Positions 1 through 8,121 of a stretch of 64,000 nt of DNA are shown one piece after another. The position numbers and the translations under genes are program-made. The stretch covers positions 336,743 to 400,742 of the forward strand of contig JAKLEA010000001.1 of NCBI GenBank assembly GCA_022711755.1, in the 5' to 3' direction. Numbering within the stretch: the stretch's first letter is position 1; every line of letters begins with the position of its first letter. The stretch comes from Planctomycetota bacterium. Lineage in GTDB: Bacteria; Planctomycetota; Brocadiia; SM23-32; JAKLEA01. Under the pieces are notes generated by a model. That model saw only the letters and a program-made list of their open reading frames with translations, made no database searches and was not told the origin of the DNA.

Positions 1-321
1 GAATGCCCACACGCATGGAAGATCGGGAGTAGCCGTCATCGTCGGGTCGGGCGACGCCGGAATAAAATCCGGCGGGAAAACGCCGAAATCGTTCTTGTAG
101 AGACCCATTCCGACGTCAATCTGCTGACACTCCTGCTTGGCGACGGTAATCCGCCCGCTCTTGCGCGCGCCTAGCAATGCCGGCAGCAGCAGGCCGGTCA
201 GCACCGCGATCACGCCAATCACGATGAGCATCTCCGCGAGCGTGAAGCCGTCGCGCCGCTGCGAACGAGGCCGACAAGCGGATTTTCTTCCAGTTCCCAC
301 GGATTTCCTCCGTTCCCGCAT
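1..321 (-). CDS. Prepilin-type pseudopilin/pilin (GspG-like), 5' part only. The gene runs off the window start. The ATG overlaps the gspF stop (TGATG).
   Basis: I translated the reverse complement by hand. It reads MRERRKSVGTGRKSACRPRSQRRDG|FTLAEMLIVIGVIAVLTGLLLPAL..., i.e. a class III signal with the G/FTLxE cleavage-methylation motif and a hydrophobic helix. It is absent from the ORF track because there is no stop inside the window. Confidence 0.6.
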   Translation of the reverse strand, partial: MRERRKSVGTGRKSACRPRSQRRDGFTLAEMLIVIGVIAVLTGLLLPALLGARKSGRITVAKQECQQIDVGMGLYKNDFGVFPPDFIPASPDPTMTATPDLPCVWAF

Positions 322-1556
322 CAACCGCCGCCCAGCGAACCCATCAGTTTGATCAGCGGCATGAACAGCGAAATGACGATGAAACCGCCGATGCCGCCCA
401 GCATGACGATCATCATCGGCTCGATCAGGCTCACCAGACCTTCGACTGCCACGTCCACTTCTTCATCGAAGACGTCTGCGACCTTCAGCAGCATCTTGTC
501 CAGTTCGCCCGTTTCCTCGCCGACCGATACCATGTTGCAAACCATATCATCGGTGACTTTTGCGGCCTTAAGCGGGTCGGCGATTGTCTCGCCCTCGCGG
601 ATGCTGTCATGAATGTTCTGAATTGCTCTGGCAAGAACGGCGTTTCCTGCCGTATCTCTAACGATGCCAAGCGCTTCCAGAATCGGCACACCGGACGCGA
701 TCAGCGTTCCCAGCGTGCGCGCGAAGCGCGAGATTGAGGCTTTATTGACGATGTTGCCGAACAGGGGAATCTTGAATTTAATCCAGTCAAGCACATAACG
801 TCCAGCGCTGGACATGCCGATTACCTTGAAGGCTATGAAGAACGCGAACGGCACAACTGGAATCATATACCAGCGCGTCTTGAATAATTCTCCCGCGTAC
901 ATCAATGCCTGTGTCATTCCGGGCAACTCGACGTTCATCTCCTGGAACATTTTTGAGAATTTTGGGATGATGAACACCATGATGCCTGACACGATCAGCA
1001 AGGCAATGGTCAGCACCGCGATCGGATAAATCATGGCGCCCTTGACGCGCCTTTTCAGTCGGGCGGACTTTTCTCGGAATTCAGCCAGACGTTGAAGAAT
1101 CACGTCCAGCACACCGCCCGCCTCTCCCGCGCGTATCATGTTAACATACAATTTATCGAACACCTTCGGATACTTGCCCATCGCTTCGGACAAACTGTTC
1201 CCGCTTTCAACGTCATCTGCCACATCCTGAAGCACGTTCTTGAGCACGCCTGGCTTCATCTGCTCATAGAGGACTCTCAGAGAGCGGACAATGGGTAGAC
1301 CGGCGTCCTGGAGCGTGGACAGTTGGCGAGTGAATGTGGTCAACTGCGCCTGACTCACACCGCCGAATGTGAACCCACGCTTTTTCTTCCCACCGGGTCC
1401 GGTTGCCGCCTTCTTGCCGGCTTTTTCTTTAACCTTTGTCGGAAACAGGTTCATCGCCCTTATCTTGGCGATGGCCTCATCAGTATTCCGGGCTTCGATC
1501 TCATCCCGGACAGCCTTACCTTGACCATTCATTGCTTCATACTGGAAAACGGGCAT
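321..1556 (-). CDS. Type II secretion / type IV pilus inner-membrane platform protein (GspF/PilC family)
   Basis: ORF 321..1613. The two T2SSF-type repeats are recognisable. The likely start is the internal MPVFQYEAMNGQG, which has AGGAG 8 nt upstream. Confidence 0.85.
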   Translation of the reverse strand: MPVFQYEAMNGQGKAVRDEIEARNTDEAIAKIRAMNLFPTKVKEKAGKKAATGPGGKKKRGFTFGGVSQAQLTTFTRQLSTLQDAGLPIVRSLRVLYEQMKPGVLKNVLQDVADDVESGNSLSEAMGKYPKVFDKLYVNMIRAGEAGGVLDVILQRLAEFREKSARLKRRVKGAMIYPIAVLTIALLIVSGIMVFIIPKFSKMFQEMNVELPGMTQALMYAGELFKTRWYMIPVVPFAFFIAFKVIGMSSAGRYVLDWIKFKIPLFGNIVNKASISRFARTLGTLIASGVPILEALGIVRDTAGNAVLARAIQNIHDSIREGETIADPLKAAKVTDDMVCNMVSVGEETGELDKMLLKVADVFDEEVDVAVEGLVSLIEPMMIVMLGGIGGFIVISLFMPLIKLMGSLGGG

Positions 1557-1785
1557 GGCAGGTACTCCTTGTCTATCACCGCATTGAAGCGGTAGACAGA
1601 TTGATCCTGACAAATGAAATCAGATTTGGAAGTTTGAAGGGGAGCAAGCAATAAAATGACGCGCCACATGCACGAACAATGCCATGCCAACCAATTATGT
1701 TGGCCGTGAGTCGCGAATGAATCATGGATATTTCATTTTTATGCGCGACACTTGGCATTCTAGACATTTCTTTGCCCTCAAATAA

Positions 1786-1815
1786 CCGGCCAAAATGTAA
1801 AGGCCGGCTTTTATT
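1786..1815 (-). terminator. GC hairpin (CCGGCC, 10-nt loop, GGCCGG) flanked by an A-tract and a T-tract. It is a candidate attenuator or bidirectional terminator within the gspF 5' leader.
   Basis: The inverted repeat is at 1786-1808. It is followed by TTTTATT on the plus strand and by TTATTTG on the minus strand. Confidence 0.35.
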
Positions 1816-1897
1816 GCTCTATCTGCAACCGGCGAACGCGCTTGCGCGCACTCAAGCCGGACTATTATATTCTGTCTCTCCTGCCCCTCTCTATCGT

Positions 1898-1925
1898 ATT
1901 ATACATTGTGGCAAGGAACAGTCAA
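1898..1925 (-). promoter_or_regulatory. Near-consensus sigma70-type promoter on the minus strand: TTGACT, 16 nt spacer, TATAAT
   Basis: The reverse complement of 1898-1925 reads TTGACTgttccttgccacaatgTATAAT. It lies in the 370-bp AT-rich gap between gspE and gspF. Confidence 0.4.
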
Positions 1926-1981
1926 GGGGCTGTTTTTCTGCCGTCTGTTTTTTATGCCGTCCGGCTGAATGGAACTGTCTT

Positions 1982-3712
1982 CTATTCTTCAACAAGGGTT
2001 TCGCGCGCCACTTCTTCGATTGTTGTCATACCGTCATAGATCGCCAGCAGTCCAGACTCGCGGAGGCTGCGCGTTCCGTATTTCCTTGAACATTCACGCA
2101 ATTCCTGAGTCGAAGCGTTAGTCAAGATGAGTTGCCGCATTTCATCGTTGAGCATTAGCATCTCAAATATCGCCATTCGCCCGCGATAGCCTGTGTTATT
2201 GCACTGGTCACAACCTCGCCCGAAAAAGAACTTCTTGCCTCGGACCTCTTCCGGGACAAGGCCAAGTTCCATGAGCAATTCTGTCGTAGGTTCAAATTCT
2301 TCCTTGCAGTTATTACAAATGCGCCTTACGAGACGTTGGCCGACAATGCCTTCTACGGTGGCACAGAGAAGGTACGGCTCCAGCCCCAGGTCCAGTAAAC
2401 GCGTCACTGCCGATGGCGTGTCATTCGTGTGCAGCGTTGTAAAAACCAAGTGCCCTGTCAGCGAGGCCTGGATGGCGATCTGGCCAGTCTCAACGTCACG
2501 GACTTCGCCGACAAGGATGATGTCCGGGTCCTGCCGCAGGATAGCGCGAAGGCAGCGCGCAAAAGTTACGCCTATATCCGAATTAATTTGCACCTGCATT
2601 ATGCCTTCCAAGTCATATTCCACAGGGTCCTCAGTGGTTATGATCTTTACATTAATGGCGTTCAATGCGTTCAGGCAGCCGTATAGAGTCGTCGTTTTTC
2701 CGGAGCCGGTAGGTCCGGTTACGAGGACAATCCCGTTTGGCTTTGCCATCAGAGTGCGCATATTTTCCAGTTCATCGGGCCGGAATCCGAGCTTTTCGAT
2801 GTCAAGCGCAACAACGCTGCGGTCAAGAACGCGCAACACGACGCTTTCGCCGAACATGGTCGGCAGGCATGATACACGCAGGTCAACTGGATTTCCTGAG
2901 ACATTCAGCTCGACACGACCGTCCTGTGGGCGGCGCCGCTCGGCGATATCCAGGCGCGACATGACCTTGATACGCGAGGTAAGCGCAAGCGCCAGATGCT
3001 TGGGAGGGGGAACCATTTCATACAGAACGCCGTCAACACGATATCTGATCTTAAATTCATCCTCGAACGGCTCAAAGTGAATGTCGCTGGCCTTATCCTT
3101 GATTGCCTGCAAAAGGATAAGGTTGAGGAGTTTTCTGACCGGGGCGATGTTGGCCATTTCCTCAAGACTGGCAATATCCACTGATTCCGACTGACTGGCG
3201 GAGAACTGGATGCCTTCATACTCCTTGTCAAGCTCGTCAATCAGGCCCTGAACGCTTTCAGTCGAATCCCGGTAGTATTTGTGTAATGCCCTGTTGACTG
3301 CATCTTCATTGCTGACGGAGCCTGTCACCTCGCAATCCAGCAGAAAGCGCAGATCGTCCAGCGTTTTCAAATGCATTGGATTGGCGAGGGCAACAGTAAG
3401 ATTCCCTTCGTGATAGGAAACCGGAATGACGCGATAAACTTGAGCAACGCTTGCGCTCACGCGATCAATAACCTCTGGTGGAATCTCAGTTTTGTCAAGG
3501 TCCACTACTTCCATGCCGGCCTGAACCGCAAGGGCCATGGTCACTTCTTCGTTGGTGACGTAGTTTAATTTCACCAGGATGGAACCGATGGCTCCTCCCC
3601 TCTCCTTCTGAATGGCCAGGGCTTCCTGAATCTGACTCTCGGTGACAAGGTGCATCTCCTTCAGTATCCTACCGAGGAGTTTCTTCGGTTGCTGTTCATC
3701 CATCTCCGGCAT
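1982..3712 (-). CDS. Type II/IV secretion ATPase, GspE/PilB family
   Basis: It has the Walker A motif GPTGSGKTTT, an N-terminal GspII_E_N-like domain, and a C-terminal Cys4 motif (CNNC...CDQC). GAGGAG lies 8 nt upstream of the ATG. Confidence 0.9.
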   Translation of the reverse strand: MPEMDEQQPKKLLGRILKEMHLVTESQIQEALAIQKERGGAIGSILVKLNYVTNEEVTMALAVQAGMEVVDLDKTEIPPEVIDRVSASVAQVYRVIPVSYHEGNLTVALANPMHLKTLDDLRFLLDCEVTGSVSNEDAVNRALHKYYRDSTESVQGLIDELDKEYEGIQFSASQSESVDIASLEEMANIAPVRKLLNLILLQAIKDKASDIHFEPFEDEFKIRYRVDGVLYEMVPPPKHLALALTSRIKVMSRLDIAERRRPQDGRVELNVSGNPVDLRVSCLPTMFGESVVLRVLDRSVVALDIEKLGFRPDELENMRTLMAKPNGIVLVTGPTGSGKTTTLYGCLNALNAINVKIITTEDPVEYDLEGIMQVQINSDIGVTFARCLRAILRQDPDIILVGEVRDVETGQIAIQASLTGHLVFTTLHTNDTPSAVTRLLDLGLEPYLLCATVEGIVGQRLVRRICNNCKEEFEPTTELLMELGLVPEEVRGKKFFFGRGCDQCNNTGYRGRMAIFEMLMLNDEMRQLILTNASTQELRECSRKYGTRSLRESGLLAIYDGMTTIEEVARETLVEE

Positions 3713-3743: not shown

Positions 3744-5495
3744 TTATTCCTGATCCATTGCGCCCGCGATGCTGATCACTTCATCAATCGTGGTGACGCC
3801 TTGCAGCGCTTTGCGAACCCCGTCTTCTGTCAGCGTAAGCATGCCATGTGCGCGTGCGCGCGCGCGAAGCTCATGCGTCGGAGCTTTCTTGAAGGCAAGC
3901 TCGCGCAGTTCGGGGTTCATTTCCAGCATTTCTGAAATGGCGCAACGTCCTCTGTATCCCGTATCGTGACAGTAAGAACAACCTGTTCCTTTGAAGAGGG
4001 TTATGTCTCGCAGGTCATCCGGCCGAAGTCCCACAGCCATCAGCATTTTTGCGGGATATTCGTAAGGCTGCTTGCAGTTATCGCAAATCTTACGTACCAG
4101 GCGCTGCGCCATGATGGCCTGAATCGCGCTGGCCACAAGGAAAGGTTTCACGCCTATGTCTATCAGGCGTGCAATTGCGCTCGGAGCGTCATTCGTGTGC
4201 AGCGTGCTGAAAACAAGGTGTCCTGTAAGCGCCGCTGTTATTGCGATTTCCGCTGTTTCCTGGTCACGGATTTCTCCCACCAGGATGATGTTGGGGGCCT
4301 GGCGCAGCATGGCGCGCAGGATGGCGCCGAAAGTCCTTTGAATGTCTTCGCGAACCTCGCACTGGTTGATTCCGCTCAGGTTATACTCAACCGGGTCTTC
4401 GGCGGTGATGATCTTGCGGTCGGGACGGTTAAGTTCATTCAAGGCGGCATACAACGTGGTCGTCTTACCGGAACCGGTAGGCCCCGTCACAAGGAAAATT
4501 CCGTTGGGACGACGGATTATGCTCTGAAACCTTTGATAATCCGTTTCGTGGAATCCGAGGTCGGACAGATTCAAAAGAATGGACTCCTTCAACAGCAGGC
4601 GCATGACGACCGTTTCACCGTTGGTGGCAGGCATCACGCTGACGCGAAGGTCCAATGCCTTGCCGCCGGCTTTGATAGCGATACGTCCGTCCTGGCACTT
4701 GCGTTTTTCGGCTATATCCATCTTCGACATCAGTTTCACGCGAGCCAGCACGGCATTCTGCAATCTTTTCGGCGGGCTTTCGATCTCCTGGCACTCGCCG
4801 TCAATTCGGTACCTGATTCTGACGCGGTTGGCCATTGGTTCGATGTGGATATCGCTCGCCCTGTTGCGAACCGCCTCGCCGATTAACATCGTCACCAGGC
4901 GGATGATCGGCGCCGAATCGGCTTCGTCACCGGCGCCCGGAGCGCCGACGGTCTTCTTGGATTCTTCGTCCATGCCCTCGGAGACCGTCCCCTCATCAAG
5001 GTTAGAAAATGTTGCTTCGCTGCTGGTGAACTCCTGGAGCATGTTGTCAACCGTTGATTCTTCGCCGCCGTAATATTGTTCGATTGCCTCCTCGATCTGT
5101 TCCGGCGGGGCCAGAACCGGTTGCACGTCCGATTCAAGGATGAAGCGAAGACTGTCAACAGCAAAGAGGTCGAGGTCCGGCATGGCAACGCGTATGACGC
5201 CGTTTTCCTTGCTGATCGGCATGATGCGGTGATTCAGGGCTGTCTGCTTGGGCACGGAGTCAATGGCTTCTACGCTGATTTCAACTTCGCCAAGGTCAAC
5301 GACAGGGATATCGAACTGTTCTCCCACGCACTGGAGGACATCCATCTCCCTCGCAAAGCCTAGTTTTACAAGAGCTTCACCCAGTTTGATCTTTTCGGCA
5401 GACTTCTGCTGGAATTCCAGGCCTCTCTTGAGCTGATCCTTGGTTATTGTGCCGCGATCCACCAACATCTGCCCTATCAACTTCCGTTTTGACAT
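3744..5495 (-). CDS. Type II/IV secretion ATPase, GspE/PilB family (tandem paralogue)
   Basis: It has the Walker A motif VTGPTGSGKTTT and a Cys4 motif (CDNC...CSYC). The ORF extends to 5516; the likely start is MSKRKLIG, which has GGGAG upstream. Confidence 0.85.
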   Translation of the reverse strand: MSKRKLIGQMLVDRGTITKDQLKRGLEFQQKSAEKIKLGEALVKLGFAREMDVLQCVGEQFDIPVVDLGEVEISVEAIDSVPKQTALNHRIMPISKENGVIRVAMPDLDLFAVDSLRFILESDVQPVLAPPEQIEEAIEQYYGGEESTVDNMLQEFTSSEATFSNLDEGTVSEGMDEESKKTVGAPGAGDEADSAPIIRLVTMLIGEAVRNRASDIHIEPMANRVRIRYRIDGECQEIESPPKRLQNAVLARVKLMSKMDIAEKRKCQDGRIAIKAGGKALDLRVSVMPATNGETVVMRLLLKESILLNLSDLGFHETDYQRFQSIIRRPNGIFLVTGPTGSGKTTTLYAALNELNRPDRKIITAEDPVEYNLSGINQCEVREDIQRTFGAILRAMLRQAPNIILVGEIRDQETAEIAITAALTGHLVFSTLHTNDAPSAIARLIDIGVKPFLVASAIQAIMAQRLVRKICDNCKQPYEYPAKMLMAVGLRPDDLRDITLFKGTGCSYCHDTGYRGRCAISEMLEMNPELRELAFKKAPTHELRARARAHGMLTLTEDGVRKALQGVTTIDEVISIAGAMDQE

Positions 5496-5553
5496 GAACA
5501 TTACTCCCGGACGCAAACAACACGAATGACTGGTTACGTCCGAATGTTATTCG

Positions 5554-8121
5554 TTATGGCTTACGTGGTTCCTTGCCGGCGTCCTTTGCGCAACGGAAAC
5601 CGGTGCTTTTCTCCACCTGGTGAATGCTGGCTGTGCGCCGCGTAGTAGTCGCAATTCCCTTGATCGGTCCTCCACGCAGCATGGCCGTTGTTGATGAGGA
5701 GGAATACCGTCCTGAGCACCATTCCCAGACATTACCCAGCATATCCATTGCGCCAACTGGGCTTACACCTTGAAGGTATTTGTTGACCGGGGTCGTATGT
5801 CCGGCAATCAAGTTACATTTCTTGATGTCGAAGTCCTCGCCCCAGGGAAATTTTCGTCCGTCCGTTCCGCGGGATGCCCGCTCCCACTCCGCCTCGGAAG
5901 GCAGTCTTTTGCCCATCCATTCGGCATAAGCCTGGGCATCGGTGTAACTGACGTTTGTAACCGGATGCCGCTCCATGTCGGCGGGGAATTGTCCGTTTTG
6001 CCAGTGCGGCGGGGGGCGATGCCCGGTTGAGATTACGAAAGCGGCATAATCTCCATTCGTCACGGGGTATTTATCAATGAAGAAAGCCGGGAGATTGATT
6101 TTCTCTCCCCTGCGAAGTAACCCGCGTTTCTCGTCACCATATATGAACTCACCTTCGGGCACAAGTATCATGCTTTTGATGCCATGCTTGATGCGCACAA
6201 CCCTAAGCAGCTCCTCAACCTGCGGTTCCTGTCCAAACTTCTGCTTAAGCTCATCAAGTTCCAGCGATGCCGCCGTCAAGTCCCCAATTTTAAGAAGATT
6301 AGCGACTTCGGCCAGTCTGGCCTTCAAATGGCCCGCCCTGGTGACGTCGGCTTTCTTTGATGCTGCTTCAGCTATTTGTTTCAATTCGTCGTTATGTCGG
6401 TCAAGGTCAAGACCTTCCTTTGCGAGTTGCAAAGCCTCATCGTAATGGCCTTTTCCCAGAGCCATTTTCGCGGCCATCAGTTTTGCCGCCGCATCGTCTT
6501 TATTCATACTCTTGACGCGCGCGGTGGCATAAGTAAAAGCCTTGCGCATCTCCTCATTCTGAGGATCAAGTTCAACTGCCTTTTTTGCCGCCGCTGCCAC
6601 AGAACGGTAGTCCTGCTCCGCCCACGCTGCCCTGGCGTCACGGATTGCGAAAGCCAGGTCTCTTTCGCGGATTTTGCCCGGCAGAATCTCAAGAACCTTA
6701 ACAAGATTCACATCGGACGGACGCAGTTCCAGCGCTCTTTTTATGAATACTTCCGCTTCCTCATAATTGTATTCATCAAGGCATTTCTGCGCCTTTGAGC
6801 GGAATTCTTCAAACCACTGGGCAATTTCCTGCGCTTGATTGAGAAGTTTTTTTGCGTCGGCATTATCGGGAACCAGTTCCAATGCGCCCTCAAACTCGCT
6901 GACTGCCGCAGAATAATTATGCTTCTCCATTGCTTCCTTGCCCGCGTTCAACTTTGCAAGCATCTTGATATATGAACGAAGGTCTAAACCGCATCCGCCG
7001 CAGAATTTTGATCGTATATGATTTTCAACGGAGCACTTGGGACATTCTTCAACCAGCCTTGTGCCACAAGACTCGCAATACTTCGCCTCCGGCGGATTGC
7101 GGAAATTACATTTGAGACAGGCCACAGGTCCGGCGCTGTCGGTCTGCTTGTCGCCTAGAAGACCATCAATTGCCTCGATGACTTCCCGCGCATTCTGGTA
7201 GCGGTCATCCGGGCTTAATTCCGTCGCTTTGCCAATGATGTTGCGTACATCATCAGGAACTTTATTGAGGTCCTTGCGGATCGGCGGACTGCCGACAACC
7301 AGTTCATAGAACGTGTTGCCAAGCGCATATATATCCGCCCTGTGGTCAATATTCACGGCGTCAAACTTCTGTTCCGGAGCCATGTAAGCCATTGTGCCGA
7401 CCGTGTACCCGCTCTCCGTAACTTCTTCTTTTGCGCCGACTTGCGCAAAGCCGAAATCAACAATCTTCGGCGTGTCGTCGTCTGTCAGCAGGACATTGGC
7501 CGGTTTCAGATCCCGGTGAATTACACCCTTTTCATGGGCATGAGCGAGTCCTTCGCATACTGCGCGGATAATTTTCACGGAACGCATCAGGGGCATCGCT
7601 CCTTCGCGCTTTACAAGGCTGTGCATATCCTCCCCGTCAACGTACTCCATCGAAATGAAGTAACCGGCATCATCGTGATCCACGTTATAAACGCGTATGA
7701 TATTAGGGTGATTCAGCTTTACTATTGCCCTTGCTTCCACGAGAAAACGCTGAAGACTTTTCTCATCCTTGATCACTCGCTTATGCAGGCGTTTTAATGC
7801 GACCGTGGTGTCGAGAATCTTGTCATAAGCCCTGTAGACATTTGCCATTCCGCCACGGCCAAGCTTGTCAAGGACCGTATAGCGGCCCCCAGCGTCATTG
7901 CTTTTGAACTGATCTGTCCTCACCTCAACCGTTGACGCAGCGCCCTGACTGTCCGTGGTGGAACTTCGCCGTGAATCCTGTTGCTCCAATTTCGTGCCGC
8001 AGTGCGGGCAAAACTGCCCTTGGATATCAAGCGTAGCCGAACAGTTCGGACAAACAAGTTTCGCACCCGAATCGCCGGAGCGAAGCTTCTGATTCTGCGC
8101 TTTTGGTTCGGCTCCACTCAC
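5554..8121 (-). CDS. Ser/Thr protein kinase with an N-terminal zinc ribbon, a second zinc ribbon, TPR repeats and a C-terminal FGE-sulfatase (formylglycine-generating-enzyme-like) domain
   Basis: The kinase catalytic loop HRDLKPANVLL and DFG are present. The zinc ribbons are CPNC...CPHC and CLKC...CESC...CPKC...CGGC. TPR-like helical repeats follow. The C-terminus carries FGE-domain hallmarks (YPVTNGDYAAF, GNVWEWC). The start codon is GTG. Confidence 0.8.
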   Translation of the reverse strand: MSGAEPKAQNQKLRSGDSGAKLVCPNCSATLDIQGQFCPHCGTKLEQQDSRRSSTTDSQGAASTVEVRTDQFKSNDAGGRYTVLDKLGRGGMANVYRAYDKILDTTVALKRLHKRVIKDEKSLQRFLVEARAIVKLNHPNIIRVYNVDHDDAGYFISMEYVDGEDMHSLVKREGAMPLMRSVKIIRAVCEGLAHAHEKGVIHRDLKPANVLLTDDDTPKIVDFGFAQVGAKEEVTESGYTVGTMAYMAPEQKFDAVNIDHRADIYALGNTFYELVVGSPPIRKDLNKVPDDVRNIIGKATELSPDDRYQNAREVIEAIDGLLGDKQTDSAGPVACLKCNFRNPPEAKYCESCGTRLVEECPKCSVENHIRSKFCGGCGLDLRSYIKMLAKLNAGKEAMEKHNYSAAVSEFEGALELVPDNADAKKLLNQAQEIAQWFEEFRSKAQKCLDEYNYEEAEVFIKRALELRPSDVNLVKVLEILPGKIRERDLAFAIRDARAAWAEQDYRSVAAAAKKAVELDPQNEEMRKAFTYATARVKSMNKDDAAAKLMAAKMALGKGHYDEALQLAKEGLDLDRHNDELKQIAEAASKKADVTRAGHLKARLAEVANLLKIGDLTAASLELDELKQKFGQEPQVEELLRVVRIKHGIKSMILVPEGEFIYGDEKRGLLRRGEKINLPAFFIDKYPVTNGDYAAFVISTGHRPPPHWQNGQFPADMERHPVTNVSYTDAQAYAEWMGKRLPSEAEWERASRGTDGRKFPWGEDFDIKKCNLIAGHTTPVNKYLQGVSPVGAMDMLGNVWEWCSGRYSSSSTTAMLRGGPIKGIATTTRRTASIHQVEKSTGFRCAKDAGKEPRKP

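Follow-up and report, generated by a model that had tools for sequence, protein, structure and literature searches.

The reading that we prefer for the spacer between the tandem gspE genes and gspF, and to which we give a probability of about 0.5, is that it carries an internal promoter for gspF and a leader with an attenuator-like terminator module and a regulator box, acquired in the sub-clade made up of the window (the whole 64-kb stretch of DNA that was analysed) and two related loci, L166 and L167. Judged from its sequence, this is plausibly a new regulatory leader and not a known riboswitch. How type IV pilus and type II secretion-like systems are regulated in the Planctomycetota is, to our knowledge, essentially uncharted, and the lineages are uncultured; no known principle would be overturned by such a leader, and its value is that of a concrete, testable entry point. 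The features on which the argument depends are as follows, listed from upstream to downstream on the coding strand.

3744-5495, minus strand: gspE1, from the ATG used by gene callers; the open frame extends to a TTG at 5516
1982..3712, minus strand: gspE2, a pilB-type ATPase with T2SSE and MshEN domains, the upstream neighbour of the spacer
1933..1961, minus strand: two copies of the direct repeat GACGGCA(T/G)AAAAA, spaced 16 nt apart and stopping 7 nt short of the -35 of P1
1925-1920 (-35) and 1903-1898 (-10), minus strand: predicted promoter P1, TTGACT, 16 nt, TATAAT, an 11/12 sigma70 match
1861..1891, minus strand: 5' tail, purine-rich and unstructured, with AGGA and CAUA common to the window, L166 and L167
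1829..1860, minus strand: predicted hairpin H1, with outer stem CCGGC/GCCGG, an 8-bp inner stem and loop GCAA, dG -19 kcal/mol
1780..1809, minus strand: terminator-like hairpin (1809-1784), AGCCGGCC, a 10-nt loop and GGCCGGUU, followed by UUAUUU, dG -15 kcal/mol
1735..1767, minus strand: conserved box ATGTCTAGAATGCCAAGTGTC (1767-1747) with an A-rich tail to 1735, beginning 12 nt after the U tract
1576..1767, minus strand: 63-codon ORF from the ATG in the box, probably not protein-coding
1565..1597, minus strand: predicted local hairpin GUCUACCGC...GCGGUGAUAGAC (1597-1571), abutting the Shine-Dalgarno sequence AAGGAG (1570-1565)
321..1556, minus strand: gspF/pilC platform gene with a T2SSF domain, its stop overlapping the start codon of the gene that follows

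The window matches a metagenome-assembled genome (GCA_035389845.1, labelled Candidatus Brocadiia bacterium), and the locus has been assembled from several samples. On the minus strand the order is a Ser/Thr kinase-FGE-sulfatase fusion, gspE1, gspE2, the spacer, gspF and a prepilin-type gene. T2SSE and MshEN domains were found in both ATPases, and the gene downstream of gspF carries an N_methyl prepilin motif; its ATG shares one base with the gspF TGA, the overlap of pilin start and gspF stop that the initial annotation had described. The start of gspF was placed at the ATG at 1556, and not at the upstream TTG at 1613, because 30 homologues share this M1 and the N terminus MPxFxxEAMN that follows, and because AAGGAG, the strong ribosome-binding site already noted in that annotation, lies 8 nt upstream. 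The spacer between gspE2 and gspF is therefore 1557-1981, or 425 nt. It had been described as 370 bp long and AT-rich: there is indeed a spacer, but the shorter length fits the TTG at 1613, and the spacer is AT-rich only mildly (42-49% GC, against about 50-57% in its flanks).

GspF homologues are abundant in the Planctomycetota and close relatives are few. The closest to the window are L166 (91% identical), L167 (76%) and L168 (69%), followed by L171, L174, L176 and L178 at 65-67%; searches for further members of the clade with the N-terminal part of GspF and with full-length GspE2 gave one new relative only, 78% identical. Among about 165 loci drawn from genomes and metagenomes, most have fewer than 150 nt between gspE and gspF, and the long spacer is therefore a feature of the clade of the window. 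The RNA module described below was absent from the contigs of a 72% relative, P0243 (L179), and of P0244 (L182), the latter having a gspE-gspF spacer of only 66 nt. What comes after gspE in L179 (4738-5227; GspE 72% identical) is a 490-nt spacer and then, in place of gspF, a gene of the phosphodiesterase family; the linkage of gspE to gspF is therefore not universal in the group.

The internal promoter proposed for gspF in the initial annotation, TTGACT-16 nt-TATAAT on the minus strand, was recovered by promoter prediction at 1925-1898 with 11/12 consensus positions. It outscores every other promoter-like match in the first 9 kb of the window, a match of its quality arises in 3 of 1000 dinucleotide shuffles of the window spacer, and the transcription start that it predicts lies near 1891, about 7 nt after the -10. 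The sigma70 consensus is the working assumption for promoters in cultured Planctomycetota (PMC11958385). Each of the spacers of L166, L167, L171, L174 and L176 contains exactly one 10-11/12 sigma70-like match on the gene strand, at the equivalent place, and for each of these six spacers, the window included, a match as good was seen in 0-5 of 1000 dinucleotide shuffles (p<=0.005), even at 60-65% GC; the six spacers are related by descent, and these shuffle probabilities are not to be multiplied. The match is thus not isolated in random DNA, one of the outcomes that the annotation had named as counting against it. That it has been kept though the surrounding DNA is barely alignable argues for selection. 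Conservation of the spacer was partial, extending to the promoter and, in L166 and L167, to the RNA module, but not to the sequence around them. In L174 and L176 the promoter stands 107-119 nt before gspF with no terminator between, and with nothing separating the two, it must there be the gspF promoter; by homology with the promoters of these relatives, P1 is the predicted gspF promoter of the window. The direct repeat GACGGCA(T/G)AAAAA just upstream of P1 is possibly an UP-like element or a second regulator site, and in L176 a similar sequence, GACGGGCAAATGTGC, adjoins the -35.

Other candidate promoters in the spacer were also considered. A second promoter-like match, TAGAGA-18-TATAAT (10/12; 1864-1893, minus strand), lies inside the 5' tail just downstream of P1, with a -10 that overlaps the conserved CAUA of the tail; it was not taken as the main promoter because its start would fall inside H1. 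A sigma54-type promoter near TTGGCATGGCATTG (1690-1677) was rejected in a reading by eye, the GG-N10-GC spacing being unmet and the motif not conserved. An invertible, phase-variable promoter was likewise discarded, as no convincing inverted repeats flank P1 and the best pair has one arm in the gspF coding sequence.

Downstream of the promoter, the window, L166 and L167 share the same order of elements, namely a purine-rich tail, H1, a linker and a terminator-like hairpin with a U tract, and this architecture was predicted independently in each of the three by single-sequence folding. The tail is 29-36 nt long. H1 begins 38 nt after the -10 in the window; across the three lineages its outer CCGG stem is conserved while its inner stem and loop vary, with dG from -13.5 to -19 kcal/mol, and a linker of 11-19 nt leads to the second hairpin. 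The latter, about 89 nt after the -10, corresponds to the GC hairpin with a U-rich tail that had been pointed out after the promoter, and in the three lineages it has 8-9 bp, dG of -13 to -17 kcal/mol and 4-6 U after it (UUAUUU in the window, where the tract is interrupted, UUUUUU in L166 and UUUU in L167). The equivalent hairpin of L166, with an 8-bp stem and six U, was called terminator-like by a simple terminator scan; the same scan passed over that of the window, whose 10-nt loop exceeds the limit of the scan, and which is nevertheless shaped like an intrinsic terminator. At about 335 nt, the predicted leader agrees in length with the structured leader of about 330 nt suggested initially, and it folds better than shuffled sequences (z = -4.45), its first 113 nt alone doing so only modestly (z = -2.15).

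Since MAFFT misaligned the stems, the alignment was made with a covariance model, for which the window and L167 were the input sequences and the window supplied the structure. The model recovers L166, which was not among its inputs, at the expected site with E = 0.006 in 368 kb. In the resulting alignment 92% of cells are paired, compared to 23-45% in slid registers, and 5 of the 21 pairs are changed on both sides, three of them in H1 and two among the eight of the terminator stem, where 96% of cells are paired; these figures come from three sequences only and an alignment that leans towards the model, and the covariation statistics are weak. The changes are suggestive of both stems having been kept by compensation. 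All four stem arms are built on CCGG and an alternative 2:3 (plus 1:4) pairing is possible. When forced, this 2:3 antiterminator pairing was predicted to be 3.8 kcal/mol less stable than the optimum of the window, and in the three sequences its columns fit both folds. The module is single-copy and locus-specific, the covariance model finding no other significant copy in the 64-kb window or at non-homologous sites of 46 other loci, and with one copy only a REP or MITE-like repeated or mobile palindromic element was rejected.

Two further structural observations concern the remainder of the leader. The linker just 5' of the terminator, AGCAAUAAAA (1809-1818), is perfectly complementary over 10 nt to UUUUAUUGCU (1647-1656), about 150 nt downstream, and the minimum-free-energy fold of the whole leader uses this pairing. 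Sequestration of the Shine-Dalgarno sequence was predicted in 6 of 6 leaders, an uncontrolled prediction to which no weight is given.

The third element of the leader, absent from the initial annotation, is the 21-nt box ATGTCTnnnnnGCCAAGTGTC. Its core is identical in the window, L166 and L167 while its flanks diverge, and in all three it stands 11-13 nt beyond the U tract; a degenerate box follows the promoter in L171. The 64-kb window has a single copy of the box, and no further one turned up there even with three mismatches allowed. About 15 distant loci, whose GspF is about 50% identical and several of which are labelled Phycisphaerae or Sedimentisphaerales, have the same box ahead of gspE/pilB, with the consensus aGTCTnAATAACyAArTGTCyAAT and an A/T-rich stretch after it. 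Over 2.3 Mb of both-strand sequence a box matrix gave 19 matches that scored at least 20; all lay on the gene strand, ahead of gspE or gspF, and 9 of the 19 had not been used as seeds. A clear TTGnCA-17/18-TATAAT promoter follows in the distant loci, its -35 at a fixed 15-16 nt beyond the end of the box, which puts the centre of the box about 61 bp ahead of the predicted start of gspE/pilB transcription. Box and promoter together look like the site of a regulator shared across distant Planctomycetota, and the box itself is most likely the DNA site of a putative regulator. In the clade of the window the box instead falls within the transcribed leader, some 125 nt past the predicted start, and no recognisable -35 or -10 was found downstream of it in the window, L166 or L167; its role here must differ from that in the distant genomes.

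In the distant loci the box and its A/T-rich stretch run directly into a strongly conserved TTGyCAAAAAGGnTTTAATGTnnTATAAT. The box units are at L148:354-389, L157:1525-1560, L076:1566-1601, L085:1607-1642, L139:1569-1604, L150:1285-1320 and L130:730-765 and 880-915, and further loci with the unit are L124, L136, L079, L077, L147, L072, L044 and L135. Within the window, about 40 nt before the gspF start, there is also a TGTC-N10-TGTCT, a pair of TGTC elements 14 nt apart (1594-1612, minus strand), and in L166 and L167 an (A)TGTCT or GTCTGTC is found in much the same position; the pair could be a weak second copy of the half-sites of the box, or chance.

On the preferred reading, P1 would transcribe gspF and the pseudopilin genes downstream, and both its transcripts and any arriving from the upstream gspE genes would have to read through the terminator for gspF to be expressed. 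Because gspF and the pseudopilin genes would depend on read-through, the hairpin is by position an attenuator, most likely one that sets or regulates the expression of gspF, and transcripts ending at it would leave an RNA of about 112 nt. The fixed distance from U tract to box suggests that terminator and box work together; a regulator bound to the box could stop RNA polymerase near the terminator or make it pause there, or could act on initiation nearby. We infer the transcription start, termination and read-through, the binding of a protein to the box and the regulatory signal from the arrangement of these elements. Against an attenuator, the strong-looking terminator of L166 would starve gspF unless termination were relieved, and the U tract of the window is interrupted. 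A more elaborate version is rather improbable as a whole. It holds that one regulator activates pilB-operon promoters from about -61 in Phycisphaerae-like genomes and here, 11-13 bp beyond the terminator, gates termination versus read-through into gspF, the terminated product being a new small RNA; terminator and box would then form a single device for regulator-gated attenuation of a pilus or secretion platform gene.

The layout, with a promoter, a structured leader and a GC-rich hairpin with a U tract before the first gene, is that of intrinsic-terminator attenuators. The present leader differs from them in having no leader peptide, T-box, RAT-like element or known aptamer, and in the roughly 210 nt of poorly conserved leader that follow the terminator. 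A leader-peptide attenuator was rejected, there being no ATG between the predicted start and the terminator; a reading by eye gave TTG-initiated frames before the terminator in the window and in L166, not the same in the two, and none in L167. The box of the distant loci, for its part, sits where class I activator sites do, near -61 relative to the predicted start of a pilB-type promoter. The sites of PilR upstream of Pseudomonas pilA are tandem and contain TGTC, and the box too has two TGTC elements, 16 bp apart. It departs from PilR-type and class I sites in the clade of the window, being there part of the transcribed leader and followed by no recognisable promoter, and the promoters of the distant loci are sigma70-like and not sigma54-like. 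Nothing usable was found in the literature on a PilR/TGTC site or on planctomycete pilus small RNAs.

The main rival, less probable than the attenuated leader, is that the segment from P1 to the terminator is a free-standing gene for a trans-acting small RNA of about 112 nt; gspF would then depend on a promoter near the box that went unrecognised, or on residual read-through from upstream. Bacterial small RNAs classically have a single-stranded seed at the 5' end, then a stem-loop and an intrinsic terminator, and the present RNA resembles the terminator-ended, trans-acting kind in its length of about 110 nt, its single-stranded 5' region, its internal stem-loop and its 3' terminator with U tail; the strength of the L166 terminator would also be in keeping. 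In its sequence the resemblance is poorer, as the seed is weakly conserved, with little in common besides AGGA and CAUA, and is purine-rich, being like a Shine-Dalgarno sequence and not complementary to one. No target was found in the one duplex tested, that of the 5' tail with the gspF leader, the best of which is no better than those of shuffled tails, and there is no second copy of the RNA elsewhere. As regards the expression of gspF, the position of the box directly upstream of a promoter in distant genomes makes a weak activator-dependent promoter after the box conceivable, and TTCATT-16-CATAAT at 1721-1694 scores 8/12 in a reading by eye, but this candidate is not conserved in L166 or L167, a second sigma70 promoter of at least 9/12 was found after the box in none of the three, and in relatives that lack the module the homologous promoter directly drives gspF. 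Both readings could hold at once, as a functional small RNA can be released from an attenuated leader. Least credence of all is given to the view that nothing here is functional, the promoter-like match and the hairpins being chance occurrences in an AT-rich spacer that is drifting. Over 9 kb, it is true, promoter-like matches of at least 9/12 are as frequent as in shuffles (6 found, 5.7 expected), but matches of 10-11/12 occur in no more than 5 of 1000 shuffles per spacer and stand in the same place in six lineages. These shuffle tests, together with the retention of the stems through compensatory changes and the conservation of the box across distantly related Planctomycetota, already contradict it.

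Two other readings would give the leader a different kind of function. The 5' tail and H1 might form the aptamer of a new riboswitch, for c-di-GMP for example, with the terminator as its expression platform. A promoter, a structured region, a terminator and a gene are the usual layout of a riboswitch, and the MshEN family binds c-di-GMP, so that such a signal would be relevant beside ATPases with MshEN domains; GEMM-I and GEMM-II are likewise found in pilus and motility leaders, often with a terminator after them. The reading is highly unlikely all the same, since what precedes the terminator is a single simple hairpin, with none of the GEMM folds, and the loop (GCAA, CAGCGUU and CGUAAGU in the three sequences), linker and 5' tail vary in sequence and length, unlike aptamer cores. 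Nor did the known riboswitch that the initial annotation had in mind come to light. With Rfam 15 the whole window gave only a tRNA, outside the spacer, at the gathering score; at E<=10 nothing in 1400-2150 fell in the spacer, the sole match being a chance psbNH inside gspF; and the spacers of L166, L167 and L172 gave none at E<=5. GEMM-I (RF01051) and GEMM-II (RF01786) were excluded, with no cmscan match at any threshold tried, and tRNA and tmRNA scans found nothing in the spacer. Less likely again is that the ATG in the box opens a small protein or a regulatory upstream ORF translationally coupled to gspF. Frames of 63, 68 and 30 codons do run from the same ATG in the window, L166 and L167, ending 4-20 nt before gspF, and a gene caller predicts the ORF in L166, from a second ATG; it is not called in four assemblies of the species of the window. 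The peptides, however, are alike only in MSxxPSV, and the conserved codons lack synonymous variation, which points to constraint on the nucleotides and not on the peptide. Between the alignable DNA blocks of the window and L166, indels of 10, 3, 2 and 5 nt break the frame, ribosome-binding-site spacing differs between lineages, and in the distant genomes the box precedes promoters, a position that rules out a start codon. On the non-conserved peptide, the frame-breaking indels and the lack of a Pfam match, the ORF was rejected as a protein.

Were the attenuated leader borne out, gspF/pilC would be transcribed apart from its ATPases, from a conserved internal promoter, and the leader would be a candidate for a new family, of leaders or of small RNAs, with no entry in Rfam. 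The 21-bp box shared with distant Planctomycetota would in turn provide a handle for finding the regulator and its regulon.

Some minor observations were made around the locus. Tandem repeats lie just upstream of gspF in two relatives with 66-67% GspF identity, as GTGAACC(TT/G) units in L173 (1-120) and as CTGATTA/CTGATCA units in L178 (1150-1185), and change in their copy number could alter expression. Upstream, the 855-aa Ser/Thr kinase, which has zinc-ribbon, TPR and FGE-sulfatase domains, is encoded 37 nt upstream of the tandem gspE/pilB paralogues (3744-8121, minus strand), and this fusion gene has a promoter-like site of its own, TTGACC-17-TACAAT, at 8260-8232 (minus strand).
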